A stretch of 64,000 nucleotides of DNA, from the IMG/VR virus record IMGVR_UViG_3300029846_000001; one strand, 5' to 3'. Positions 6,501-48,709 of the stretch are shown here, one piece after another. Under the pieces are notes generated by a model. That model did not search any database. It was not told the DNA's origin and saw only the letters and a program-made list of their open reading frames with translations. This DNA is from a virus (lineage: Duplodnaviria; Heunggongvirae; Uroviricota; Caudoviricetes). How positions within the stretch are numbered: position 1 is the first letter of the stretch; every line of letters begins with the position of its first letter. Made by a program: the position numbers and the translations under genes.

Positions 6501-9500
6501 GAGAAAAAGATGTGTATGATAAATACAAACAAGATTTTGATGATTATGTATCGTCTTTGGGTGACAGTCCCGTTAATCTCATAAAATCATTATCTGAAAA
6601 GGCTGATAGGCTTACAAGTCCGAGATCTGTGTATGAGGATAATAAAGCTATTATTGATATGGCTAAATCCAATTTGGAACCAGATCAAAGGAAGGAACTT
6701 GATGATGCTATTTCTTCGTATGTTGATATAATGAACAGACGGGACAAAGGGGAGAAAGTTGACGAAGATAAGCTTGCCGATTCGGTATTTACCATAGAAG
6801 ATCTTGGCCAGGTTGGAAACATCACGGATCTCCTTCCTTATATCGAACAAAACAGGATTATTGATAAAGGTCGTATTTCCGAATCTACGTTAAGTAATTT
6901 TGGGGAGGATGATGCTAATATAGATTCTCTTGTAAATGAATTAGACGAATCTGATAATACGCCGGGAGCCAATATAGATAGCGCCCAGAATCCAGAGACG
7001 TTGATGGTAAGAAGAATCTCCAATGACGGCAATGAAAGGTATGAAATTGCAGGTCTTAGAGCCGATAAATTTATATCTTCTATAAAATCATTGGTTCCTA
7101 TTCAAATAAGCTCTGAAACGAACGCTAATGGTACTAAAAGGTATTCTCTTAACATAGGTGGAGAAACGGCTACTATAATTGAACTGCCTTATCATGCGAG
7201 ATGGTCTATAGACAAAGAATCGGCTCGTGTTCTTAACCGTTACACAGATGTGTCTATTCAGGACGTGGGTAATTCATATTCTTTGGTTTATAAGCGTCTT
7301 GATTCAGACGAATTGGTTCCGTACAGAACAGGTGTTGGATTCGGAGAGAATGAAGTAGATAAAATAGATCAGGAAGCATTATCTTCTTTGAAGAAAGGAG
7401 ATAAGGTTAATCTTGAGATAGATGCAAATGATACCTATAATCAGTCTCTTTTTGCCGAATACAATGATGCTGTTCAGTCCGGTGATAAAAAAAGAATAGA
7501 ATCTGCTGAAAATAAGCTGGTATCCAATATGGTTATCAAGGTCATGAGTGGAAACAGATTCGTTTCTGTTGTAAAAGCTGACACAGGAGGCATAGATGGT
7601 ATAAGTAAGATAAGAAGAACGGCTTTTAACAAGTGGAAGAAGGACGCCGGCCGGTCGGCCACCATCAACGTCGGCACGCATGTTGTTGCCCAGACCCTTC
7701 CTGGAAGACCGGTGTTTAACATGAGAGTAAACGGTCAAGGATATGGTCAGGTAGAAAATCTCCCTATTACCGAAAAAGGAGCTGAAAAAGTATCTGATGT
7801 CGGATATGTATTAAATGGCAAAGTCGTGCTTAAGAACGGATCTAAATACACAGGCTTCCCATTTGCTTATTCTATATTAAATGACAAGGGGAATAATTAC
7901 AAAAATGTAAGAGTTCCGGTAGTTGTCATCAAAGGCAAAAACGGTCTTAATTATCTTTTCCCGGTTAGTCTACGTTCTGTGGAATCAGAGGAAGGAAAGA
8001 AATGGATTTCTTTTATAGATATGCTGCTTGAATCAGGTGACTCTGAATTGTTACAGATGGGTCAAGATGATATACAAGATCTTAATGCGTATCTAACCAA
8101 GTTAGGCCTTGATCCGGCTTCGTATCAAGTATCGTATTTGAATCCTATTTCAGGGCTTAGAAAAGCTCGTGAGGCTATAGAAAAATTATCTACGGTTCCT
8201 GATGTTGTTAAATGGGTAGAAGATGAAAGCAGGAATGTGAAAGACATTGTGATGTCTGAAGTAGAATCTGGAATAGATTTCGAAGGTGAGATGTTTGTCG
8301 CTCCTAAGATCAGGATTCAGTTTGGTAAATCATCTTCCAGACCTAAATCACTTATAGAAGATGATCTCCCTTTCTCCGATGAGGGTAAGACCGTTACTTC
8401 CAAGGAAGATGTGGATATTTACGAAGATGAAATGCCAGAGGAAGACCCTGTCCGGGGGACTCGGCCGGCGCCACCAGCCCAGCCGGCTCCTGCGGCACAA
8501 GCTACGCAGTCCTTACATGGCAAGAAGCGCACCTCCAGAAAAAACTTCTCTCTTATGTTAAACGAAATAGAATCTCATATAGAAAAAGAAGGATTGCCGT
8601 CTTATGCTAATATTTTTGATTTTATAGCAAGGAAGATTGTAGGAGGTGATTTGAGGTTTCTTCGTGAGAGAGGTAATCCTAAAAGCCTTAAGGAAGAAAT
8701 GGGATTAGAACCTAAAGGAACAGTAGGTGATAAAATATCCACTCCTTCTAAAAAGGGAGGTAAGACCTTAGAAGAATATGTTTCTTGGCTTCGTTCTCAA
8801 ACAGATCAGGTGGTGGTTGATTATGTTGGTCCAAGATCTGACGAACAAATTATATCAGAGTTGAAAAACTTTTTGAAATATATTAATTTTGTTCCAAGCA
8901 AGGCTTTGAATTATTCTCTTAGAGTCAATGGCATGGATGCCCTAAAAGAATATGGCACAAAAGAGGAAGTAGAAAAAATGGAATCTGACATCAATAGTTT
9001 GGTTTCTGAAGTTTTGCCTACGGTAGATAATCAAACTGTAGAAGATGTTTCTACTGCAATAGAATTAAATAACCTGCCTGCCATATGGAGACCTATGGAA
9101 AGCCTTGATATGACAAACGAGGAAAAAATAGAGTTTTTGAATAACGTAGCAGATTTCCTTAGCGGCATTCCAGAGTATGATGCTGTTGTGGAGTCTATAG
9201 AGTCAGAATCAGATAATATTTTAAATGATGGAAAAGAAGGAAGTGCAGAAGGCGGTGCAGTACGCGCTGAGGAAGATGGCGATAAAAAGGGAGATGGAAA
9301 AAGAGAAGGACAACCCAGAGATGATGGCAAAGCTGAGGGAGATGTCTATTTACCTGGATCTGAAGAAGGAAGAGTAGATAACTATAAGAAGAACGGAGAT
9401 AAGTTCTCTGATATTGCCGAAGTTACTTTATGGTTACTTAGAAGGGCTGCCGGCATAACCTCTATCCCGGAAGGAGAAGAGGTTTATGTAGAGGGGGATG

Positions 9501-18006: not shown

Positions 18007-18042
18007 GTTTGTATATCCGAAATAACATTAAAACAATATAAT

Positions 18043-18268
18043 TTTATTATAAGGTTTTAATGTACCATAAATGGTCCGGATATTAGCCTAAGCCTTGAAA
18101 CGAAGGCTACGTTATTTAAGAATAGATAGTTACCTACGGATGTTTACCCAAGTCTGTAGCTCTAAGGTAAGTGATTAAACAGTTCTGGTATTCAGGAACG
18201 GTGTTGCTTACTAAAAACCTTAAATAACATTGGCGATGGGTACTAACAGAGTTTTACTCTGACTTATG
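18043..18268 (+). ncRNA. candidate omega RNA (IscB guide RNA scaffold), copy A, directly upstream of iscB
   Basis: About 225-nt noncoding element ending 30 nt before the iscB ATG; a homologous inverted copy at 47930-48170 shows compensatory base changes (e.g. stem ctacgg/ctgtag versus caagga/ttcttg around the conserved loop atgtttacccaagt); small hairpin accataaatggt at its 5' side. Confidence 0.55.
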
Positions 18269-18297
18269 TTGAATAAACATTAAAAACGTTTGTAGAT

Positions 18298-19518
18298 ATG
18301 GTGTACGTACAAGACATAAATGGTAAACCTTTGATGCCCACAACAAGGCATGGTAAGGTTAGACGACTGCTTAAAGACAAAAAGGCAGTTGTTGTAAACC
18401 TATGTCCGTTTACCATCAAATTAATGTACGTTACATCTGATTACAAACAGGAAATTGTTTTAGGCGTTGATGCTGGAACTAAACATGTTGGTCTATCAGC
18501 AACGACGAAAAGCAAAGAACTTTACAGCAGTGAAGTAATTCTTAGAAATGATATCGTAGATCTTTTGTCTACCAGAAGAGAGCTACGGAAAGCAAGACGG
18601 AACAGGTTAAGATATAGAAAACCTCGTTTTGATAACAGAGTAAAAAGCAAGCGTCTAGGATGGATAGCACCTTCGGTGAAATACAAAGTAGACGCCCATA
18701 TTCGTGTTGTTGAAAATGTTTGCTCTATATTACCAATATCTCGTATTGTTATTGAAGTAGCTCAATTCGATACTCAAAAGATTAAGAATCCTGAGATATC
18801 AGGTAAAGAATACCAGGAAGGTGATCAACTTGAGTTGTGGAACACAAGGGAGTATGTTTTAGCAAGAGATGGACATAAATGCCAGTATTGTAAAGGCAAG
18901 TCAAAAGATTCTATACTGAATGTTCATCATATTGAGTCTCGAAAAACCGGAGGGGATTCCCCTTCTAATCTTATAACTTTATGTGAAACATGTCACAAAG
19001 AATACCATAAAGGTAATATAGATTTAAAGATCAGAAGAGGCAAGTCGCTTCGCGACGCAGCCGTAATGGGAATTATGAAATGGAGGTTGTATGAAGAGTT
19101 AAAATCCAGATACGACAGAGTTTTTATGACGTTTGGTTACATTACGAAACATAATCGGATTAAATATGGGATTGAAAAATCCCATACATCCGACGCGTTT
19201 GTCATTTCTAAGAATATTAATGCGAAACGAATCGAACGTCAATATTTAAAACGTTTAATTCGTAGACATAATAGACAAATACATAAAATGAAAATTTTAA
19301 AAGGGGGGAAGAAGAAAAACAATCAAGCTCCTTTTGAGGTTTTCGGTTTTAGGTTGTTTGATAAAGTGTTGTATAACAATAAAATATTCTTTGTTTATGG
19401 AAGGAGAAAATCAGGGAGTTTCAATATCAGGGATTTCAACGGAGAAAATTCAAAAGATGTTTCACGCAAAAAGTTTAAACTCATTAGAGGGAAGAGGCAT
19501 CCGATTATATTAAAGTAA
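18298..19518 (+). CDS. iscB: IscB, an OMEGA-system RNA-guided nuclease (IS200/IS605-associated Cas9 ancestor), 406 aa
   Basis: PLMP motif (DINGKPLMPTTRHGK); RuvC-I (LGVDAGTKHVGLS); Arg-rich bridge helix (RRELRKARRNRLRYRKPRF); RuvC-II (IVIEVAQFD); HNH (CQYCKG...NVHHIESRKTGGDSPSNLITLCETCHKEYH); RuvC-III (KSHTSDAFVIS). Confidence 0.85.
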   Translation: MVYVQDINGKPLMPTTRHGKVRRLLKDKKAVVVNLCPFTIKLMYVTSDYKQEIVLGVDAGTKHVGLSATTKSKELYSSEVILRNDIVDLLSTRRELRKARRNRLRYRKPRFDNRVKSKRLGWIAPSVKYKVDAHIRVVENVCSILPISRIVIEVAQFDTQKIKNPEISGKEYQEGDQLELWNTREYVLARDGHKCQYCKGKSKDSILNVHHIESRKTGGDSPSNLITLCETCHKEYHKGNIDLKIRRGKSLRDAAVMGIMKWRLYEELKSRYDRVFMTFGYITKHNRIKYGIEKSHTSDAFVISKNINAKRIERQYLKRLIRRHNRQIHKMKILKGGKKKNNQAPFEVFGFRLFDKVLYNNKIFFVYGRRKSGSFNIRDFNGENSKDVSRKKFKLIRGKRHPIILK

Positions 19519-36636: not shown

Positions 36637-37656
36637 TCATCGTTTTATCTTTTTAGACGGATCCCAATCCGAAGAGAAAGGGCATTCGTTTTTGTTATGT
36701 AATCCAAAGTCACAATAATAACACAGTGCTGACGGGCAGGGTAGCTTGTTTTGCGAAACAGGCTGGCTTAGGGTGGCACGCCGCTTGCTATACCTGGCTC
36801 CTTCTGCTCCCTGGATGTACGCTTGAAATGATTTTACACTATTATCTTCAAAATCATACATTTTAGACAAAGTGTCATTTAGCATCTCTATAGATTTTGT
36901 TTTACGTTCCTCATCTACCTTAACCTTTTGGTACTGCCTGGTCCTGGTAAAGAAATAGATGTTCATATCTGGTAGAACCCCACCATATCTTCTATAGATG
37001 TAAAATGAATATATAGGATGCTGTAAATTTGTTTCCAACTTCTTAGAATCAAAAACCTTATTACCTGATTTCCAATCTATGACATAATGGTGAACTACGT
37101 TCTTGCTTTTTATAGCCAGATGAAGGTCTACCGATCCTACTATGTACACATGAGTATGAATTACTCCATTTATGTTAACAGGCTTAGGAAGACGGTACGG
37201 CAGCACAAAATCTTCTTCGACTCCAACTATAGCGCTGTGTCTGATAAGTTTCTCGCAGGGATTAAGATCACTATCAGCTATCATAAACCTATTGCCGTCT
37301 TTTTTGAACAGATCCACAATCCAAGCAAGAAGCTCCCCGGATTGCTTCATGGCTATCATCATATTTTCCGGTGATTGCCAAGGTATGTCTTCTTGGTAAG
37401 CATAGTAACTTATAGCTTCCCCCAGGTCTTTTCCAGAAGGCTGTCTTCCGTTCTTAAAGAAGTATTCCAGTGTCTTATGGATAACCGTACCATAAGACGT
37501 AGCTTCTTGTTTTTCCGTAGACCTTTTGCCCTCTACGTAAGTCTTATACCATTTCATTGGACAAGTAAGAAACGTGTCTATCTGGGAATAAGATATGGCA
37601 AGACGTTTCACGCCATTAAACTCCTTATATAGCAAATGCGTTTCCGGGACCATCAT
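36637..37656 (-). CDS. Cas4/RecB-like PD-(D/E)XK nuclease with Fe-S cysteine cluster, 339 aa
   Basis: N-terminal Cys (TCPMKWY); core VDLHLAIK...IDWKSG; C-terminal CPSALCYYCDFGLHNKNECPF gives the C...C-x2-C-x(n)-C pattern of Cas4/AddB-type nucleases. Confidence 0.55.
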   Translation of the reverse strand: MMVPETHLLYKEFNGVKRLAISYSQIDTFLTCPMKWYKTYVEGKRSTEKQEATSYGTVIHKTLEYFFKNGRQPSGKDLGEAISYYAYQEDIPWQSPENMMIAMKQSGELLAWIVDLFKKDGNRFMIADSDLNPCEKLIRHSAIVGVEEDFVLPYRLPKPVNINGVIHTHVYIVGSVDLHLAIKSKNVVHHYVIDWKSGNKVFDSKKLETNLQHPIYSFYIYRRYGGVLPDMNIYFFTRTRQYQKVKVDEERKTKSIEMLNDTLSKMYDFEDNSVKSFQAYIQGAEGARYSKRRATLSQPVSQNKLPCPSALCYYCDFGLHNKNECPFSSDWDPSKKIKR

Positions 37657-38012
37657 AAGTCATTGTCTTTAAATCCTTCCGGGTAATATACGACATACTT
37701 CTTACCGTCCTCCGGCGTCATGGCGAACTGCATGTAGTTATTACGATTACGATGCTTGCCATCCAATCCTCGTTTCCAATACAGGATACCGTCTATATCC
37801 ACATAAGACCGTCCGCGTTCGGCTCTAACCACGTCCGTGTGTAGCAGATACCCGTCGGAAGACACGATCCACACTTTATCCCCTTTGTTTAAATAAGATA
37901 TTCTTTTTCTTACAACAACCTTTTTCTTATTATCCAATACAAATTCCTCATCCGTCATATTCTTCATCCTCCTCTTCTTCTGTTTCAAAATCAATTCCAT
38001 AACACTGATCAT
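37653..38012 (-). CDS. hypothetical protein, 119 aa
   Basis: ORF tiled in block. Confidence 0.45.
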   Translation of the reverse strand: MISVMELILKQKKRRMKNMTDEEFVLDNKKKVVVRKRISYLNKGDKVWIVSSDGYLLHTDVVRAERGRSYVDIDGILYWKRGLDGKHRNRNNYMQFAMTPEDGKKYVVYYPEGFKDNDL

Positions 38013-38055
38013 AATGTCCGGTCAGTTCTTCTGGTTCTAAATCTTGTCCAAAATC

Positions 38056-38097
38056 CATATTAAAAATATATTAATACATATTAAAAATATATTAATC
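38056..38097. repeat. perfect tandem direct repeat, 2 x 21 bp (catattaaaaatatattaat) upstream of the flotillin gene
   Basis: Seen directly; AT-rich intergenic region ahead of the flotillin/NfeD/ACP genes. Confidence 0.7.
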
Positions 38098-38196
38098 AAT
38101 AAAGCACTAAAAATCACTATTCCTGCTGGCATGAAATCTATAAATGCTGCTTTTGCTTCTTCAATTAGGCCCAAGTGTAACCTTGGGCCATTGTAT

Positions 38197-39897
38197 TTAT
38201 TTTTTGTCATCTCCTTTTAACTTCTTTAAAGTATCTGCAATCGGAAGCTGATCAATGACTCCCAATGCCGGAGCGACGGTCTTAACAACATTGTTAAGGA
38301 AATTACCGGTACTGTTCTGACCGCCGTCAAATACCGTGATATTTCCGAGGTTAATGTGCTCGAACGCCTTAACCTGTTCTCCAGCAATTTCTTTCCACTG
38401 ATTAACCATCTTGTACTGGATGGCTATCTGAGGATTGGATTCTGCTGCTTCCACCATAGCCTTAAATCCGTCGGCTTCTGCCATCAACGACTTTTTCTTA
38501 CCTTCGGCTTCTGCCTCCAGCTTCATCTGAATAGCTTTTGCTTCCGCTTCTGCTTTTGCCAAATGTGCTGCTGCTTCGGCATCAGCCCGACGTTTGATTT
38601 TCTCAGCTTCAGCATCAGCTTGCAACATAGCCTCCTGCTTCTGAATTTCAGCCGGCACAATCTTTTCAGCTTTAAGCGCAGCTTGAACCTTCTTAGCTTT
38701 AGCTTCTTCCACTTCTTTATCAGCAAGCTCTTTTGCCGTTTTCACAGCCGCTTCCGATTTAACTCTCTCTTCTCCGGCTTTCTTTTCTGATTGAGCTTTG
38801 ATAACCTGTAGCTCTGATTCTGATACAGCAACCTCTTTCTGGGCATTGTTATAACCCACAGATGCGTTTTTCTCAGCTTCAGCTTTCTTGATCTGAGCTT
38901 CGGAATCTTGGATTGCTATAGCTGCCTGTTTATCAGCTTCAGCTTTATTCTTCCCGACTTCTTCCATTCTTTCGGCTTCAGCTTTGTTTACTTCAAGTTC
39001 TGCCTTAGATTTTGCGATCGCTGATTCCTTATCAGTCAAAGTCTTTGCAATAACCGCAGCCCTATCTCTATCGGCTTGAGCTACACCGATCTGTTTTTCT
39101 TTATCGGTTAAAGCCAAAGCTACTTCTTTTTCTTTCTTTGTTTCAGCTACTACCGTTTCCTTTTCTTTTTCAGTATAGGCAATTTGAATCTCTTGCTCTT
39201 TTTGGGTATTAGCTACAGCCGTTTCTTTTTCCTTTTGCTGTACAGCAATCTTAATAGCACCCAGCTTTTCCTGTTCTTCGATATTAGCCTGTGCTTCGTT
39301 CAGGGCCTTACTTTCAGCTTCTTTGCCAAGATTCATGATATAGCCGGCTTCGTCTCTGATGTCACTGATGTTGATATTTAGGAGGTAAAGACCTAACTTA
39401 TTAAGTTCGTTATCAATGTTTTTTCTTGCCTTATCCAAAAACTCATCCCTGTCAGAATTAAGTTTTTCAATCGTCATTTCAGCAATGATCAAACGCATTT
39501 GGCCATAAACAATATCCGTAATAAGATTTTCAGTAGATTCAGTATCCATCCCCAAAAGCCTTTCTGCTGCATTCTGCATAATTTCAGGATTTGTGCTGAT
39601 TGCTACTGTAATAGTAGTAGGTACATCCACTCTGATATTTTGAGACGACAAAGCACCGGTGAGCCTACAATCTATTTGCATAGGCTCCATAGACAAAATA
39701 TCATAGCTTTGAATAATAGGCAAGACGAATGCCGCTCCACCATGATATAATTTCGCCGATTTCTTTTCCCCACCTGTCTTACCATAAACGACCAAGACTT
39801 GATTAGGCTTACATCTACGATACCTTGATAAGACTCCGATGATTGTCAAAATAATCACTACAGCTAAAATAGCTGACACGTACATGATTGTTGTCAT
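38197..39897 (-). CDS. flotillin-like SPFH/band-7 protein (YqiK/FloT family), 566 aa
   Basis: N-terminal TM helix; SPFH core; very long Glu/Ala-rich coiled coil (KAEAEKNAS, ADAEAAAHLAKAEAEAKA), the characteristic flotillin EA-repeat region. Confidence 0.75.
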   Translation of the reverse strand: MTTIMYVSAILAVVIILTIIGVLSRYRRCKPNQVLVVYGKTGGEKKSAKLYHGGAAFVLPIIQSYDILSMEPMQIDCRLTGALSSQNIRVDVPTTITVAISTNPEIMQNAAERLLGMDTESTENLITDIVYGQMRLIIAEMTIEKLNSDRDEFLDKARKNIDNELNKLGLYLLNINISDIRDEAGYIMNLGKEAESKALNEAQANIEEQEKLGAIKIAVQQKEKETAVANTQKEQEIQIAYTEKEKETVVAETKKEKEVALALTDKEKQIGVAQADRDRAAVIAKTLTDKESAIAKSKAELEVNKAEAERMEEVGKNKAEADKQAAIAIQDSEAQIKKAEAEKNASVGYNNAQKEVAVSESELQVIKAQSEKKAGEERVKSEAAVKTAKELADKEVEEAKAKKVQAALKAEKIVPAEIQKQEAMLQADAEAEKIKRRADAEAAAHLAKAEAEAKAIQMKLEAEAEGKKKSLMAEADGFKAMVEAAESNPQIAIQYKMVNQWKEIAGEQVKAFEHINLGNITVFDGGQNSTGNFLNNVVKTVAPALGVIDQLPIADTLKKLKGDDKK

Positions 39898-39928
39898 AAC
39901 TTTTAAAATTTAATTGCTGATAAAAAAA

Positions 39929-40423
39929 TTAGATACTTAATTCTCCTTCTTCGTATTTTATATTCACCTTGTCACCGTTTTTGTAATTTTTTCCAGACAA
40001 GCACCTCACTCTCATCTGTTCCTGTCTTCCATTTTTCGAAATATTTACCATATAATGATTCTTCCCTGATCTAAATACTATCTCCACTTCTCTGCCATTT
40101 AAATCTTCCGGACATTCGTACACCATTTCTTGCTTTAACTTAAGAAGTAACTTATATACGTAAAACAAAACGATAAAGAAAAACGACCCTATTACGACCC
40201 CTATTAAATGGGAACCCGAAAAGTATGTGGTCCAGCTATATCCAAGAATAAAATGTGTTATGCCTTTGAATGATATGATGTCCGACAAAGACATGCTTAA
40301 ATCAGAAGCGTTATCAATGTCAATATCCGTATCCAGATCAGATCCTAATATCGACAATAAAAACTGTATAACAAAAGCAAATGACGCTATTAAAGCCATG
40401 CATAAAATTATGTCACTTCCCAT
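39929..40423 (-). CDS. NfeD-like membrane protein (YqiJ/YuaF family), 164 aa
   Basis: N-terminal hydrophobic helices plus C-terminal beta-rich soluble domain; immediately upstream of and co-directional with the flotillin gene, the conserved NfeD-flotillin pairing. Confidence 0.6.
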   Translation of the reverse strand: MGSDIILCMALIASFAFVIQFLLSILGSDLDTDIDIDNASDLSMSLSDIISFKGITHFILGYSWTTYFSGSHLIGVVIGSFFFIVLFYVYKLLLKLKQEMVYECPEDLNGREVEIVFRSGKNHYMVNISKNGRQEQMRVRCLSGKNYKNGDKVNIKYEEGELSI

Positions 40424-40664
40424 ACCCTTCTGTTATTATTTTGTAAACAAGATCAGTCATATCTTTGATGGATTCTGTATCATAATCAATAATAACGATA
40501 TTGAATTTTTGTTCCACCATCGCATCAAGCTCAATTCGATCAATAGAATCTAATCCAAGTTCTTTAAACGTCACATCTTCTTCATGAACTATATCCATTT
40601 CCGAATTAAGAAACTGAGTAATAATTATATCCTCTATTATCTTTCTAATTCTTACTTTTTCCAT
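40413..40664 (-). CDS. acyl carrier protein-like, 83 aa
   Basis: KELGLDSIDRIELDAMVEQKF matches the ACP phosphopantetheine-attachment signature (LGxDSLDxVEL, Ser in DS); acidic and small. Confidence 0.6.
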   Translation of the reverse strand: MEKVRIRKIIEDIIITQFLNSEMDIVHEEDVTFKELGLDSIDRIELDAMVEQKFNIVIIDYDTESIKDMTDLVYKIITEGYGK

Positions 40665-41365
40665 TGCTTTCTAATTTTGTTAAATAAATATGTTTTTATG
40701 TTTTTCAATCGTTCTTTGTCTGTTTCCGCACTTCCGGTAAACAAATAATCCGGATTGCCTTTAGCCGGCGGCGTAGGCAATTTAGATACGGCAAACAACC
40801 AATCCATTTCCTTATTCTTCTTAGGCTCCAAATAAGGCTCGGTAGCGATCTTAAATTTTTCAGCTATTAAGTCAAAGAGCTTTGAGTTTTTAAGGTTCAT
40901 ATGGACTGAAAAAGCCTGAGAAGGCGGTTTCCATATGAAGTTACATAAGCTCATTGTGTAATCTCCTGACTCTGCTATATAAGATTCCGTTACTTGAAGT
41001 ATGACCTCTTTCTTAAATGAAGTATTACCCATAAACCAACACAATCTGGATTCCGCTTCTTTTCTGCTGACACCTATGTCTTTTGAATATGATTCGTACA
41101 TTCCTATCATAATCTTCAACGTTTCCAGAACCTCGTCTGTCATTTCCGGTGTCTCTATATAATTCACAAAAGACGTTCCTTTGTTGGTCAATCTCATCAC
41201 GCCTGATTTTAATTTCTCAACCAGGCCAAGCTCTATATATCTACCAGCATCTTCTTCCTGCATGGCTTCGATCATAACCGAATCCTTCTGTCTTATGGCA
41301 AGAAGATTAGCGAGATCATTAGGAGTCATGTCTGATGCTGTAAGTTGTCTGAAATTGATGTACAT
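40652..41365 (-). CDS. hypothetical protein, 237 aa
   Basis: ORF tiled in block. Confidence 0.5.
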   Translation of the reverse strand: MYINFRQLTASDMTPNDLANLLAIRQKDSVMIEAMQEEDAGRYIELGLVEKLKSGVMRLTNKGTSFVNYIETPEMTDEVLETLKIMIGMYESYSKDIGVSRKEAESRLCWFMGNTSFKKEVILQVTESYIAESGDYTMSLCNFIWKPPSQAFSVHMNLKNSKLFDLIAEKFKIATEPYLEPKKNKEMDWLFAVSKLPTPPAKGNPDYLFTGSAETDKERLKNIKTYLFNKIRKQWKK

Positions 41366-41367
41366 TC

Positions 41368-41574
41368 CTAATCAGCTTTAATGAAAATAACATCTCTATT
41401 ATCCTCCCTCTCCGCGTGACTACACGGACCTGCAATCACATGCACTGCCCCGCATGTAAAGTAATTGAATATACATCCTTCACATCCTGCATTTGGCGCC
41501 GTAGGTTCCACACATTTTAATCTCACAAGTCCGGCATCAAACACTTCTCCTACTTTAAATTCCTTCTTTTCCAT
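41368..41574 (-). CDS. hypothetical Cys-rich small protein, 68 aa
   Basis: CVEPTAPNAGCEGCIFNYFTCGAVHVIAGPC. Confidence 0.4.
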   Translation of the reverse strand: MEKKEFKVGEVFDAGLVRLKCVEPTAPNAGCEGCIFNYFTCGAVHVIAGPCSHAEREDNRDVIFIKAD

Positions 41575-42205: not shown

Positions 42206-43339
42206 TTAATATACTGACTGTTCTTCCTTTACCTCTTGTTCTTGATCTTGATTGTTCGTAACGTCTTCCACAGTATAGAGCTTGGGCGGCGTCGGCGGCT
42301 GGTTGGGGTTCACGAACTTCGTCCCTCCCTCCCCGTACATCCATCCATGCCCCGGCAGGATCTCTGGGTGGATTGTATTAGTAAGCTCTTCCATACTAAC
42401 TTGCCTTACCTTCAGTATATGATGAAACACCAGTCCGGCTGTCCTGAATGATGTTTTGTTTTCAGTTTTAAACCGGTCAAGAGTCTGATACCAGTCTTTC
42501 CCAAATATCATATACTTGTCCAGCCCGTATCTGCGAGGATTATGCAAACCTATCATTAACGTACATAGTTGCCCCAGCGTATCAGACTGATAAAAGTCAG
42601 AAAGACGGGGAGGCTGCTCTTGAGGGCTTTTTATCCTTCCTTCTATCTCTCTGTTGAATTGGGATATGATGAGGAAAAATATGTTTTTATATACTAATTT
42701 AGCCTCGTTCATAATCGCCACCAAATCATCTATAGCCGACTTAGGATCCAATCCCATTCTTTTTATCAAAGCAATATGATCGACTTTAAATATTATAAGA
42801 CGTTTGTCTTTATGCTTAGTAGCTATATGATATACAGCCGCCTCAAACTCTTTTACCGTACACGGAGCGTCGATGTATATTATATTATTTCTGATTTCAC
42901 CTTGAAGGATTTCAAACATCCTCATCTCTTCTACTGTATTAGAATCTTGCCTTCTTAATATTTCAGGAGCCCGCTTTTTCATATCCTGGCTCATTCTGCG
43001 AAGAAGAAGATCCTGAGGATTCATTTCGAACTCGCAATTAACAAGAAAATAATCTTCTGCCTGCGGGTTGATCATCGGATTCATCACATTTTCCAATATC
43101 TTTTGGGCCACATACGATTTACCTACAGATGGCCGGGCTCCTATGGCAATAGCGTGCTGAGGGAAAATACCTCCAAGCAAAGCCTCATCAATATAATCGT
43201 ATCCGGTTTTAGCGGGGATAAGCTCTCCCCGCCTGTATTTCAAGATATTCTCATACGCCTCTTCCATAACCTGTTTAGAGGTTTTGAATATCCTTCTAAT
43301 ATCTATCCTATTTGCTATCTCCTCGTGCATTTTTGTCAC
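42206..43339 (-). CDS. DnaB-like replicative helicase (RecA-fold C-terminal domain), 377 aa
   Basis: Walker A GARPSVGKSYVA; Walker B-like hydrophobic strand followed by D (LIIFKVDHIAL); overall DnaB C-terminal domain arrangement. Confidence 0.65.
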   Translation of the reverse strand: MTKMHEEIANRIDIRRIFKTSKQVMEEAYENILKYRRGELIPAKTGYDYIDEALLGGIFPQHAIAIGARPSVGKSYVAQKILENVMNPMINPQAEDYFLVNCEFEMNPQDLLLRRMSQDMKKRAPEILRRQDSNTVEEMRMFEILQGEIRNNIIYIDAPCTVKEFEAAVYHIATKHKDKRLIIFKVDHIALIKRMGLDPKSAIDDLVAIMNEAKLVYKNIFFLIISQFNREIEGRIKSPQEQPPRLSDFYQSDTLGQLCTLMIGLHNPRRYGLDKYMIFGKDWYQTLDRFKTENKTSFRTAGLVFHHILKVRQVSMEELTNTIHPEILPGHGWMYGEGGTKFVNPNQPPTPPKLYTVEDVTNNQDQEQEVKEEQSVY

Positions 43340-46117: not shown

Positions 46118-46347
46118 ACTCTTCTTGTGTTTCTAACCAGTATAGGCATTATTACATTAACATTCTTGCCATATTTCTCATAAGATGTGAGTATGCATAT
46201 TGCATACTTATCCCCTATCTTCAAATCTTTCGATAATCTTAATCTTGACCCCCTTTTGATGTTAATAAAATAATCACCAAAAGGATTGATACATATCGGT
46301 TTTACGATTTCCACATAATCTCCTTCAGGAATAACAATATCACTCAT
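46114..46347 (-). CDS. hypothetical protein, 77 aa
   Basis: ORF tiled in block. Confidence 0.4.
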   Translation of the reverse strand: MSDIVIPEGDYVEIVKPICINPFGDYFINIKRGSRLRLSKDLKIGDKYAICILTSYEKYGKNVNVIMPILVRNTRRV

Positions 46348-47663
46348 ATTACGAATCTTTTAGACATTTCCTCAGCAATATCATATACAACAATATGATC
46401 CTCTTCATTGTATGGCTTATTGATATTCAGCACTCCTTTTCTTACCTTAAACCTCTTATCTTTTCTAAGGTGATTCAACATCCCTTGTTGGAATACACAG
46501 TCTGCCTTCTCCATAGCAGCATTTTTATCAGACCATTCTTTTAGCGTATAACCTTTACTGTTCGTGCTTTTTGGAGAAAAATTCATAATGCGTGCGTCAA
46601 TTCCGTACCAGTTTTTAACCATTCTCCTTTCAGCCTCCAATTGAAAAGCATGTTCATTTCGTATGTCACCCGATTTAAAATCTAAGATAACAATCTCTTC
46701 TTTCTCCACTTCTCTCACTTCCTTCTTCGGATCGCCTTTTTTGAACTGCCCCGTAGCCCTTTGATACACGGCTCCAAAATAACCTTCTTCTTTGTACTTG
46801 AATGTCATTTTAACCATCGCATCTATCGGCGTAGCTACCAAATAATCTTCTAATGATAATATTCTTTCAATCATCATCGGCTTAACCTTATACTCCGAAC
46901 AAAATTTAGCAAACTTCATAACTCTGACAATCATATCGTCAAGATCATCTATGCTACCAAAGAATTTGTCAAGATTCTTTTTTGATATTTTAAGCTTGCC
47001 TTCTTGCACTGTCTTAACTATAAAACTTCGATTTAAGACCATATCTCTACCCGTCAAGTACAATCCGTATAGGTAGTGCATGATCGTTCCTTTATCTGCA
47101 TCATATTCTGATACTTCTTCCGGATTGCGACCAATCATCCTCATCTCCTGTCTCCATTCTTGAAGAGCCGTCTTGTCATCTACGAATCCGTCTCTAATCA
47201 TGGTTGTTACCGAGGCGTATATCTTGGCTGTCCCATCGTCCATCTTTCTTACATAAAAACGATTACCGTCTAATGTCAATCTTACGAATTTGGGAGTCTC
47301 AATCTTCTTTAACTCATCACAGATATAAAACGGCTCTAACGTTTCCTGATTTTCTGTAAACGGATTCGAATCCTCTTCTCCAGGGTTAGAAGCGGCTTCC
47401 TCCGCCGGAGCTTCCGGTTCCTCCTTCTGGGCCTGCTCTGGCTCAGGCGCCGGCTCTTCAACTATTGGAACCTGCCCGCCTCTTTCTGCTATGTCTCTGT
47501 TCTTTATTAAAGACATAACCTCCTTCTTCAACTGCTCTGGTGTTTGATTAGGATTTGACACCGACATCACAACATCGTTCATTCTAAACAACGTATTCCC
47601 TTCTCCTTCCACCATAGGAACAAATCCTAAATCTGTCAATATTTTTATTTTCTGTTCTATCAT
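46344..47663 (-). CDS. hypothetical protein, 439 aa; possible nuclease/recombination protein (weak PD-(D/E)XK-like ILDFKSGD...QLEAER)
   Basis: Large ORF; Pro/Glu-rich acidic linker (PAPEPEQAQKEEPEAPAEEAASNPGEED). Confidence 0.5.
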   Translation of the reverse strand: MIEQKIKILTDLGFVPMVEGEGNTLFRMNDVVMSVSNPNQTPEQLKKEVMSLIKNRDIAERGGQVPIVEEPAPEPEQAQKEEPEAPAEEAASNPGEEDSNPFTENQETLEPFYICDELKKIETPKFVRLTLDGNRFYVRKMDDGTAKIYASVTTMIRDGFVDDKTALQEWRQEMRMIGRNPEEVSEYDADKGTIMHYLYGLYLTGRDMVLNRSFIVKTVQEGKLKISKKNLDKFFGSIDDLDDMIVRVMKFAKFCSEYKVKPMMIERILSLEDYLVATPIDAMVKMTFKYKEEGYFGAVYQRATGQFKKGDPKKEVREVEKEEIVILDFKSGDIRNEHAFQLEAERRMVKNWYGIDARIMNFSPKSTNSKGYTLKEWSDKNAAMEKADCVFQQGMLNHLRKDKRFKVRKGVLNINKPYNEEDHIVVYDIAEEMSKRFVI

Positions 47664-47929: not shown

Positions 47930-48170
47930 GTTAGGGATAAGTCAGGATTTCTCCTGTAAGTACCCATCGCCAATGTTATTTTGAGGTTTTATATAATGGC
48001 AACACTGTTTCGTCAAATACACTACTCCTGTTTAATCACCATTCTTAGAGCAAGAAACTTGGGTAAACATTCCTTGGTAACTATTTATTCTCAAATAACG
48101 TAGCCTTTGTTTCAAGGCTTAGGCTAATAACCCGATCTCTGAAAGAGATGTATTAAACTTTTATAATAGA
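47930..48170 (-). ncRNA. omega-RNA-like structured element, copy B (solo, inverted relative to copy A at 18043-18268)
   Basis: Reverse complement aligns with copy A across about 230 nt with compensatory substitutions in predicted stems; 5' variable hairpin atctctttcagagat; followed (in transcript direction) by the strong hairpin GGAGACC-GAAA-GGTCTCC (plus coords 47893-47910); no nuclease gene adjacent. Confidence 0.5.
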
Positions 48171-48187
48171 ATTATATTAGTTTAATA

Positions 48188-48709
48188 CTATTTGGGGTTA
48201 TATCTGTCAATTATTTCAATAATCAACCTACCTCTTTCTTTAATCATTCCCCTGCTTTCCATATCCAGTACCTTCTTTACCGCATACTTCCACACAAAAG
48301 GAAATTCTGTTTCAAGTTTATCAAATTCCATCCGGTCAAGATACATGTCGAATACCGTATGCTCCGATTCATGAAGGAAAACTATATTATCCCTGCAAGT
48401 AGCAACCGACTTATATATCCTTTTCGGAAGTATGTGACAGACGTTACATACTGTAGGAAAATGAATAGCCTTACCGGTCATAGACATTCGAATAGTACTC
48501 AACTCCTCCAACATAAGACGAAAAAACCCGGATAAATCCGGGTTCTCTAACTTTTTCTTCTTGCTGCTGTTTTTAATGGATGTAATTCTGTCTTTTTTCT
48601 TCGGAGTCAACTCTTTGCTCCTGCAAGCCTGGCATAAGCCATGACTTCTTATCATTACTTTTCGTCCGCATTTTTCGCAGACGTATAGCTTCTTTTCCTT
48701 GCTTTCCAT
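48188..48709 (-). CDS. hypothetical zinc-ribbon protein, 173 aa
   Basis: CEKCGRKV...CQACR N-terminal Cys pairs; basic linker. Confidence 0.5.
   Translation of the reverse strand: MESKEKKLYVCEKCGRKVMIRSHGLCQACRSKELTPKKKDRITSIKNSSKKKKLENPDLSGFFRLMLEELSTIRMSMTGKAIHFPTVCNVCHILPKRIYKSVATCRDNIVFLHESEHTVFDMYLDRMEFDKLETEFPFVWKYAVKKVLDMESRGMIKERGRLIIEIIDRYNPK

Follow-up and report, generated by a model that had tools for sequence, protein, structure and literature searches.

A host-type NfeD-like/flotillin gene pair in a variable cargo slot of a crAss-like phage

The virus sequence analyzed here, a 64,000-nt stretch of IMG/VR record IMGVR_UViG_3300029846_000001 (the window; coordinates are window positions unless another locus is named), carries three consecutive genes for a divergent acyl carrier protein (ACP)-like protein of 83 aa, an NfeD-like membrane protein of 164 aa and a flotillin of 566 aa. 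The reading that we regard as probable is that the NfeD-like/flotillin cassette was taken jointly from a Bacteroidales-type chromosome into a cargo slot of the phage, and that the ACP-like gene is independent of it. The source phage is a ~150-kb crAss-like phage of Bacteroidales of the csAssE-Sib type. This placement is based on csAssE-Sib (OR575929.1), the single match obtained among 50,697 deposited phages, which shares 94% DNA identity and the gene order over the region and whose 151-kb genome, of human gut origin, is annotated with ring and muzzle proteins, Bacteroidetes-associated carbohydrate-binding (BACON-type) proteins and a diversity-generating retroelement. A literature search found nothing on csAssE-Sib. 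Contamination or a chimeric assembly was ruled out, as the same synteny is present in more than 150 independent viral contigs.

The three genes are part of a long minus-strand gene run. An earlier reading of the letters without database searches (the original prediction) had placed them in a phage replication block, and this setting was borne out by Pfam and PHROG scans and by the annotation of the relative, which identified DnaB, a PD-(D/E)XK nuclease and helicases around them. The stop of the ACP-like gene and the start of the NfeD-like gene overlap by 11 nt, while the NfeD-like and flotillin genes are separated by a gap of 31 nt.

A genome collection containing one genome per bacterial or archaeal species was scanned for the family of the 164-aa protein, using a 9-member subset of the family as the query. 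The scan gave 80 loci, of which 78 are bacterial and two (L132 and L144) lie on phage-like contigs binned in metagenome-assembled genomes (MAGs). Almost all of the bacterial loci are located in chromosomes of Bacteroides, Phocaeicola, Parabacteroides and related Bacteroidales. At every one of the 80 loci the next gene downstream, on the same strand, is a flotillin gene, in agreement with the predicted NfeD-flotillin operon of the bacterial type. In the 75 Bacteroidales chromosomal loci the flotillin shares 62-67% identity with the phage copy by tblastn and 66-70% over aligned columns, except that the truncated fragment in one of them, L153, reaches 76%; in the five most distant loci the identity is 39-45%. 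The corresponding values for the NfeD-like partner in the collection loci are 32-41% by tblastn and 37-44% over aligned columns. Among the bacteria themselves the partner evolves faster than the flotillin, with identities of 41-81% as against 72-95%. When the genes flanking the pair were scanned with Pfam in three genera, no PP-binding protein appeared; the neighbors are unrelated housekeeping genes that differ by genus (YbeY with MnmG, TruA with EamA, and cobalamin genes).

In neighbor-joining trees of both proteins, the phage pair (window and L243, a divergent sub-lineage) forms a long-branch sister to the pairs of Bacteroides, Phocaeicola, Parabacteroides and Prevotella. Because the two genes are placed congruently and form a conserved operon in bacteria, these comparisons show a host-like ancestry of the two as a pair, and their capture together from a Bacteroidales-type host would be the simplest reading.

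The 566-aa protein is unambiguously a flotillin by its domain matches, though it is not an orthologue of FloT. Pfam Band_7 (PF01145) matches residues 30-211 with 90 bits (cut-off 23.6, E = 2.5e-25) and Flot (PF15975) residues 450-559 with 38.4 bits (cut-off 27, E = 1.5e-9), and long E/A/K-rich coiled-coil repeats are visible in the translation at residues ~215-470. With both domains above their gathering scores, the SPFH core and coiled coil that had been proposed from the letters were recovered. An N-terminal hydrophobic anchor, identified in the translation by eye without a transmembrane (TM) predictor, spans residues 4-24 (IMYVSAILAVVIILTIIGVLS) and is followed by RYRR. The best matches among PDB sequences are human flotillin-2 and flotillin-1 (4.6e-23; cage structures 9bq2 and 9l3g). 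The FloT equivalog model NCBIfam NF058507 gave 145.8 bits, which is below its threshold of 700. No PHROG family matched the flotillin, and only 2 of the 50,697 records of deposited phages, those of csAssE-Sib and Vibrio phage KIT04, contain a near-full-length homolog; the expectation that genes of this kind are unusual in phages was thus correct. Since 41 of the 52 readable copies are exactly 566 aa long, length polymorphism of the flotillin was set aside as a minor feature.

The identity of the 164-aa protein had to be approached through fold, architecture and operon context, because the sequence models gave nothing. No match was obtained in Pfam, NCBIfam, PHROG or PADLOC models, Pfam NfeD (PF01957) did not match at E<=0.1, a 5-sequence profile found nothing in the PDB, and a word-indexed search returned close metagenomic relatives only. 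A profile search of 1.84 billion representative proteins yielded 432 family proteins, mostly of ~170 aa. Across 72 homologs the hydrophobic segments are conserved, and only one of these 72 family members matches PF01957 (6e-5). The family profile could be aligned with YuaF (2k14) in register over the whole NfeD domain, with a weak E of 0.15. The layout of the protein comprises TM1, an acidic DxDxDxD loop, an SFKGxxHF motif, TM2 and TM3, an LxGR/LVGR motif and a C-terminal OB-fold beta-barrel. Its AlphaFold (AF2) model, with a mean confidence (pLDDT) of 75, has long helices at residues 2-25, 52-69 and 72-101 and a six-stranded C-terminal domain. Foldseek returned YbbJ, the NfeD subunit of the E. 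coli QmcA-YbbJ complex, as the top PDB match (E = 0.015, 119 columns), with generic OB folds scoring almost as high. Measured against short-form NfeD proteins, the protein therefore lacks the sequence match but has the OB fold, the multi-pass N-terminus and the SPFH operon, the last in the window and at all 80 homolog loci of the genome collection. Taken together, the model and the synteny indirectly confirm the predicted NfeD-like identity, while membership in a sequence family was not supported by Pfam, NCBIfam or PHROG. As a separate observation, the ~170-aa flotillin partners of Bacteroidales (loci L082-L161, for example L089) appear to be missed by current NfeD models; the partner of Phocaeicola vulgatus, the sole cellular member scanned directly, had no Pfam match.

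The 83-aa protein is a divergent ACP-like protein with a conserved Ser. A score of 26.6 bits was obtained for PP-binding (PF00550; cut-off 20.8), PHROG 5934 'acyl carrier protein' matches at 8e-8, and all 116 of the 116 matches among PDB sequences are ACPs. Ser40 is intact, LGLDSIDRIEL being aligned to the phosphopantetheine site LGLDSLDTVEL, so that the original call of an ACP-like protein with an intact DSL motif stands. The protein falls under every NCBIfam ACP cut-off, the best score being 29.7 bits against 71 (AcpP-type, TIGR00517 / PRK00982). In the flotillin-bearing clade of the window the Ser is kept in 236 of 241 related loci. In both sampled members of a sister lineage without flotillin, L249 and L335, it is replaced by Asp (LGFDDLDF in L249). 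An ACP fold that bears Asp has no prosthetic-group site, which suggests a role in protein interaction.

The NfeD-like/flotillin pair occupies a variable cargo slot between p237, a conserved backbone gene (followed by the ACP-like gene), and p119 with the PD-(D/E)XK nuclease. The backbone of the related phages has the order primase, DnaB, a ~200-aa gene, sometimes a ~85-120-aa gene, p237, the slot, a p119-like gene, the PD-(D/E)XK nuclease and a superfamily 2 (SF2) helicase. In these phages p237 always comes after DnaB and the ~200-aa gene and before the slot, and the position of p119 and the PD-(D/E)XK nuclease is conserved in all of them. The contents of the slot differ. It is empty in L336 and holds only small, apparently p119-like open reading frames (ORFs) in L334, L337 and L251. 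In L249, L250 and L335 it contains an ACP-like gene and a DNA methylase, with two radical-SAM genes further on and no flotillin. The ACP, NfeD-like and flotillin genes are found in the window clade and in L243, which keeps their order at a flotillin identity of 83%. The original proposal to look for the same trio in related phages was answered in part: the window clade and L243 carry it, whereas the sister phages combine an ACP-like gene with other cargo.

Natural loss of the flotillin gene is frequent. Full synteny was observed in 145 of 164 related viral loci. A sample ascertained through p237, which is unbiased as to the pair, comprised 79 complete regions; 53 of these (67%) have intact ACP, NfeD-like and flotillin genes, 18 show a clean absence of flotillin with the ACP and an intact NfeD-like gene kept, and 8 have partial deletions. 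The deletion junctions fall into at least nine classes. The two commonest join the stop region of the NfeD-like gene (~39924-39926) to ~38067-38075 via TTTTT(A) microhomology, and metagenomic proteins include in-frame fusions in which the N-terminus of the NfeD-like protein is joined to the C-terminus of flotillin. Where they are retained, flotillin and the NfeD-like gene are under strong purifying selection. Between the window and csAssE-Sib, flotillin has a ratio of nonsynonymous to synonymous substitution rates (dN/dS) of 0.037 and the NfeD-like gene one of 0.041; between the window and L243, the value for flotillin is 0.068 at a dS of 1.7. These values match those of the backbone genes (0.04-0.07). 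The low dN/dS of the retained copies and the recurrent deletion of flotillin together indicate that the pair is functional yet dispensable accessory cargo.

Known SPFH-NfeD systems, namely HflK/C, QmcA-YbbJ, the flotillin cages and FloT-YuaF, provide the basis for a mechanism. The pair would be transcribed together with the replication genes. By analogy with these systems, the flotillin would insert in the host inner membrane by its N-terminal anchor and form an SPFH cage or microdomain by oligomerizing via the coiled coil and the Flot domain. The OB domain of the NfeD-like partner would dock on the flotillin as in QmcA-YbbJ and FloT-YuaF. The pair could then supplement or reprogram the flotillin system of the host in infection and so affect membrane fluidity, membrane integrity or the stability of membrane proteins, a benefit that would be conditional and not essential.

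Several points weigh against this account of capture and conditional benefit. The physiological role is extrapolated from the literature on bacterial flotillins, and the trees are neighbor-joining trees without support values that were built from stop-to-stop ORFs. The direction of the indels, loss and not gain, is deduced from the co-ancestry of the pair and from partial remnants. Finally, some of the deletion variants could be assembly artefacts, against which it counts that identical deletion junctions recur in many independent contigs. To our knowledge, the physiological role of bacterial flotillins and their NfeD partners is still not clear.

A different function, which we consider possible but rather unlikely, is that the pair serves as an accessory in an arms race, either in superinfection exclusion or in a membrane-stabilizing counter-defense against abortive-infection (Abi) effectors. 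The variable slot with its methylase and radical-SAM genes in sister phages would fit such a role, as would the distribution of the pair, which is patchy, recurrently lost and strongly purified when present, a pattern typical of conditionally useful accessory genes. However, the three genes match no PADLOC defense model, no anti-defense homology is known, the host already has the same pair, and the idea is purely inferential. A more specific version, in which the SPFH cage and its NfeD-like partner form an infection-specific membrane device that acts as counter-defense against membrane-disrupting Abi effectors or as a superinfection-exclusion barrier, seems unlikely to us. If true, it would explain the arms-race-type slot, the strong conservation when present and the repeated loss. 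In a weaker variant of the device, a Ser-retaining ACP may have been recruited to the flotillin only in the flotillin-bearing clade.

The original prediction had treated the three genes as a functional trio. Our results argue instead for a two-gene unit with the ACP-like gene as an independent neighbor, since the ACP is missing from the bacterial pair loci, travels with other cargo in the sister phages and is kept irrespective of flotillin. At the 80 genome-collection loci, neither the phage ACP nor any of the other phage genes around it has a detectable homolog, save for one match to p68 on a phage-like contig, and an additional metagenomic bacterial locus agrees in having the pair without an ACP. 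Likewise, no ACP lies beside the flotillin in L132, L144 or Vibrio phage KIT04. Of the p237-ascertained genomes, all 79 have the ACP, while a third lack some or all of flotillin. The constraint on the ACP is also much more relaxed, with a dN/dS of 0.30-0.44. That all three genes nevertheless form one module, in which the ACP delivers an acyl or lipid moiety to the NfeD-flotillin scaffold or docks on it, is in our view quite unlikely. Consistent with one module, the genes are adjacent, the two sub-lineages share the gene order ACP, NfeD-like, flotillin at a flotillin identity of 83%, and the Ser is conserved in the flotillin clade but replaced by Asp in both sampled sister members without flotillin. 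The overlap between the ACP and NfeD-like genes, from which the ACP had been described as coupled to the pair, is real, but gene overlaps are common all along the block, and it is therefore not specific evidence for a link. Furthermore, no phosphopantetheinyl transferase (PPTase), fatty acid synthase, acyltransferase or other acyl-handling enzyme is annotated in the 151-kb genome of csAssE-Sib.

The location of the pair in the replication block, between DnaB and a recombination nuclease, could suggest that the flotillin cage organizes an essential membrane-anchored compartment for phage replication or assembly. We consider this very unlikely, because about a third of the natural genomes have no intact flotillin but keep all of the flanking replication genes, because related phages with the same backbone are entirely without flotillin, and because the abundance of flotillin-minus variants in metagenomes already suggests normal replication and assembly. 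The frequent natural loss of flotillin thus speaks against an essential role in either process. The roles suggested in the original prediction, such a compartment or the remodeling of host membranes, are speculative. That the pair is decaying passenger DNA from the host without function in the phage is hardly credible, since, in spite of the frequent deletions and a few truncated ORFs, a dN/dS of 0.04-0.07 is maintained across a synonymous divergence of more than 1.5 between sub-lineages, which largely refutes it, most readable flotillin copies have the same length, and the pair is conserved in two sub-lineages.

The features of the locus and of the loci compared with it are listed in Table 1.

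Table 1. Positions of the genes, repeats and RNA elements discussed in the text, in the window and in related loci.
Feature	Position	Strand	Description
ACP-like ORF	40413-40664	minus	83 aa; ORF listing
NfeD-like ORF	39929-40423	minus	164 aa; ORF listing
Flotillin ORF	38197-39897	minus	566 aa; ORF listing
GC-rich hairpin	38168-38189	minus	GGCCCAAG-GUUACA-CUUGGGCC; starts 8 nt past the flotillin stop
Tandem repeat	38052-38096		TRF: period 21, 2.1 copies, 95% matches; AT-rich
Small ORF	38037-38210	minus	57 aa; C-terminal hydrophobic helix; overlaps the flotillin stop; contains the hairpin and the repeat
p119	37653-38012	minus	Backbone gene; downstream edge of the slot
PD-(D/E)XK exonuclease	36637-37656	minus	Pfam PDDEXK_1, 1.4e-20; backbone; downstream edge of the slot
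p237	40652-41365	minus	237 aa; conserved backbone gene; upstream edge of the slot
p68	41368-41574		68-aa gene
DnaB-like helicase	42206-43339	minus	Replication block; upstream of the trio
ACP-like gene, sister lineage	L249 5675-5938		Followed by a DNA methylase and two radical-SAM genes
ACP-like gene, sister lineage	L335 5675-5938		Followed by a DNA methylase and two radical-SAM genes
NfeD-like and flotillin genes	L132 4998-7508		153-kb contig filed as a Clostridium MAG
NfeD-like and flotillin genes	L144 4947-7488		140-kb contig filed as a Gastranaerophilales MAG
Flotillin partner, Bacteroidales	L089 5001-5534		Example of the ~170-aa partners
KIT04_049	L338 3180-3428		82 aa; upstream of the KIT04 flotillin
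First HEARO RNA	18038-18247	plus	Rfam RF02033, 107.7 bits; IscB omega-RNA type
ORF after first HEARO RNA	18298-19518	plus	406 aa; RRXRR (4.8e-61) and HNH domains
Second HEARO RNA match	47956-48201	minus	92.3 bits
ORF downstream of second HEARO	46344-47663		439 aa; no Pfam match

A perfect 2 x 21-bp tandem repeat had been noted upstream of the trio. This had to be corrected, as the two copies are 20/21 identical and, because the genes are on the minus strand, lie downstream (3') of flotillin. The repeat is located at the 3' edge of the flotillin cassette, inside the small ORF, where the most frequent deletions of flotillin have their 3' junction. Of 164 related loci, only 8 have the unit in two copies; most have a single copy, which gives a 50-aa ORF. 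A function as a regulatory element or iteron was ruled out by the 3' position and by the duplication in just 8 of the 164 loci. The repeat looks like a strain-level duplication that arose by slippage in AT-rich DNA and by chance coincides with a common deletion junction. The small ORF itself, labeled 'hypothetical' in csAssE-Sib, is doubtful as a fourth member of the operon, since it is shortened in about a third of the relatives (50 aa in most, cut to 34 aa in ~54 loci) and has a dN/dS of 0.57 against L243.

The hairpin that begins just past the flotillin stop has a folding energy of -17.4 kcal/mol (z = -4.5). In the divergent L243 a compensatory change from A-U to G-C has converted GGCCCAAG/CUUGGGCC to GGCCCAGG/CCUGGGCC. 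There is no U-tract on the coding strand at the hairpin, and its role is therefore deduced only; it may be a terminator, an mRNA 3'-end or an mRNA-stabilizing element.

Homologs of p237, the gene at the upstream edge of the slot, occur on other phage-sized contigs with identities as low as 36%. The model of p237 (pLDDT 86) combines an N-terminal winged-helix and an all-helical domain and has no significant match among solved structures; p237 could be a DNA-binding protein of the replication module. It was also considered as an Sfp-type PPTase serving the ACP, and this candidate was rejected on account of the winged-helix and all-helical fold without a significant fold match. The presence of p237 without an ACP in several lineages further disfavors such a service link. 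At the downstream edge, four loci (L169, L183, L229 and L236) have a ~360 bp insertion exactly at the p119 start (near locus position 6560-6920, window ~38000).

Elsewhere in the window, within the phage structural region, a HEARO RNA is directly followed by a 406-aa ORF with RRXRR and HNH domains, and positions 18038-19518 thus constitute an IscB-like RNA-guided nuclease unit. Just small hypothetical genes are annotated in csAssE-Sib around the matching position. A second HEARO match has no adjoining IscB-like ORF and may be an orphan omega-RNA; the next ORF downstream of it corresponds to the 'DNA replication factor' of csAssE-Sib.

Part of what is described here was already known. The GenBank record with 94% identity already labels both flotillin and ACP, lists of SPFH ORFs in T4-like phages go back to 2006 (PMC1524935), and those of phage GIB1 were recently remarked on as unexplained (PMC13239085). 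A literature search found no paper connecting crAss-like phages and flotillin; the 'phage Perkons' paper was rejected as a precedent because it concerns integration into the host floA gene and not a phage flotillin. Given the existing annotation and the long-noted phage SPFH genes, the finding is incremental and not surprising. New here are the recognition of the middle gene as NfeD-like, the tracing of the pair to a host, its separation from the ACP, the variable-slot context and the natural flotillin-plus/flotillin-minus polymorphism.

These results suggest that an abundant crAss-like phage of the human gut captured the flotillin operon of its own host and has since kept it under strong selection, yet lost it repeatedly. 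As flotillin-plus and flotillin-minus variants coexist in nature, their comparison would reveal the effect of flotillin in an infected Bacteroidales cell. The analysis also defines an NfeD-like family of Bacteroidales (~170 aa) that escapes current Pfam and NCBIfam models, and it reveals a hot-spot for cargo within the replication module of this phage group.

Among phages, the nearest relative of the window is csAssE-Sib, in which the three genes (WOZ57345-WOZ57347) are labeled 'flotillin family protein', 'acyl carrier protein' and, for the 164-aa gene, just 'transmembrane protein', and which has one copy of the 21-bp unit. Other SPFH genes, of unknown function and in lytic genomes, are the flotillin of Vibrio phage KIT04, the SPFH ORFs of the T4-like phages 44RR, Aeh1 and RB43, and the genes of L132 and L144. 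They are only 28-42% identical to those of the window and were probably acquired independently. None of them adjoins an ACP, and L132 and L144 share the NfeD-like partner. These two loci, which are probably phage genomes mis-binned into MAGs, represent a second phage-like lineage with an NfeD-like gene and a 657-aa flotillin ~40% identical to that of the window. Their upstream gene is a small lipoprotein-like ORF of 72-76 aa and not an ACP, and L144 shares p68 with the window at 45% identity. In KIT04, the gene upstream of flotillin, KIT04_049, encodes three hydrophobic helices and an acidic DLDD loop and resembles the membrane half of the NfeD-like family, without the OB domain.

The textbook analogs are yuaF-floT of B. 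subtilis (yuaFGI) and yqiJ-yqiK and QmcA-YbbJ (PDB 8z5g) of E. coli, in which a short NfeD gene lies directly upstream of the SPFH gene and the NfeD protein likewise consists of TM helices and a C-terminal OB domain. FloT shares the Band_7, coiled-coil and Flot layout of the phage flotillin, which however stays far below the FloT equivalog cut-off. Unlike YuaF, YbbJ and YqiJ, the phage NfeD-like protein has a sequence similarity under the family thresholds, and the acidic DxDxDxD loop and the SFKGxxHF motif set the ~170-aa family apart from the textbook NfeDs. The closest system is the Bacteroidales operon, as found in Phocaeicola vulgatus, Bacteroides xylanisolvens and Parabacteroides goldsteinii, with which the phage pair has the gene order, the spacing and both protein architectures in common. 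It differs from this operon in that the phage copies form a long branch outside the sampled bacterial genera, are located among replication genes instead of housekeeping genes, and are often deleted.

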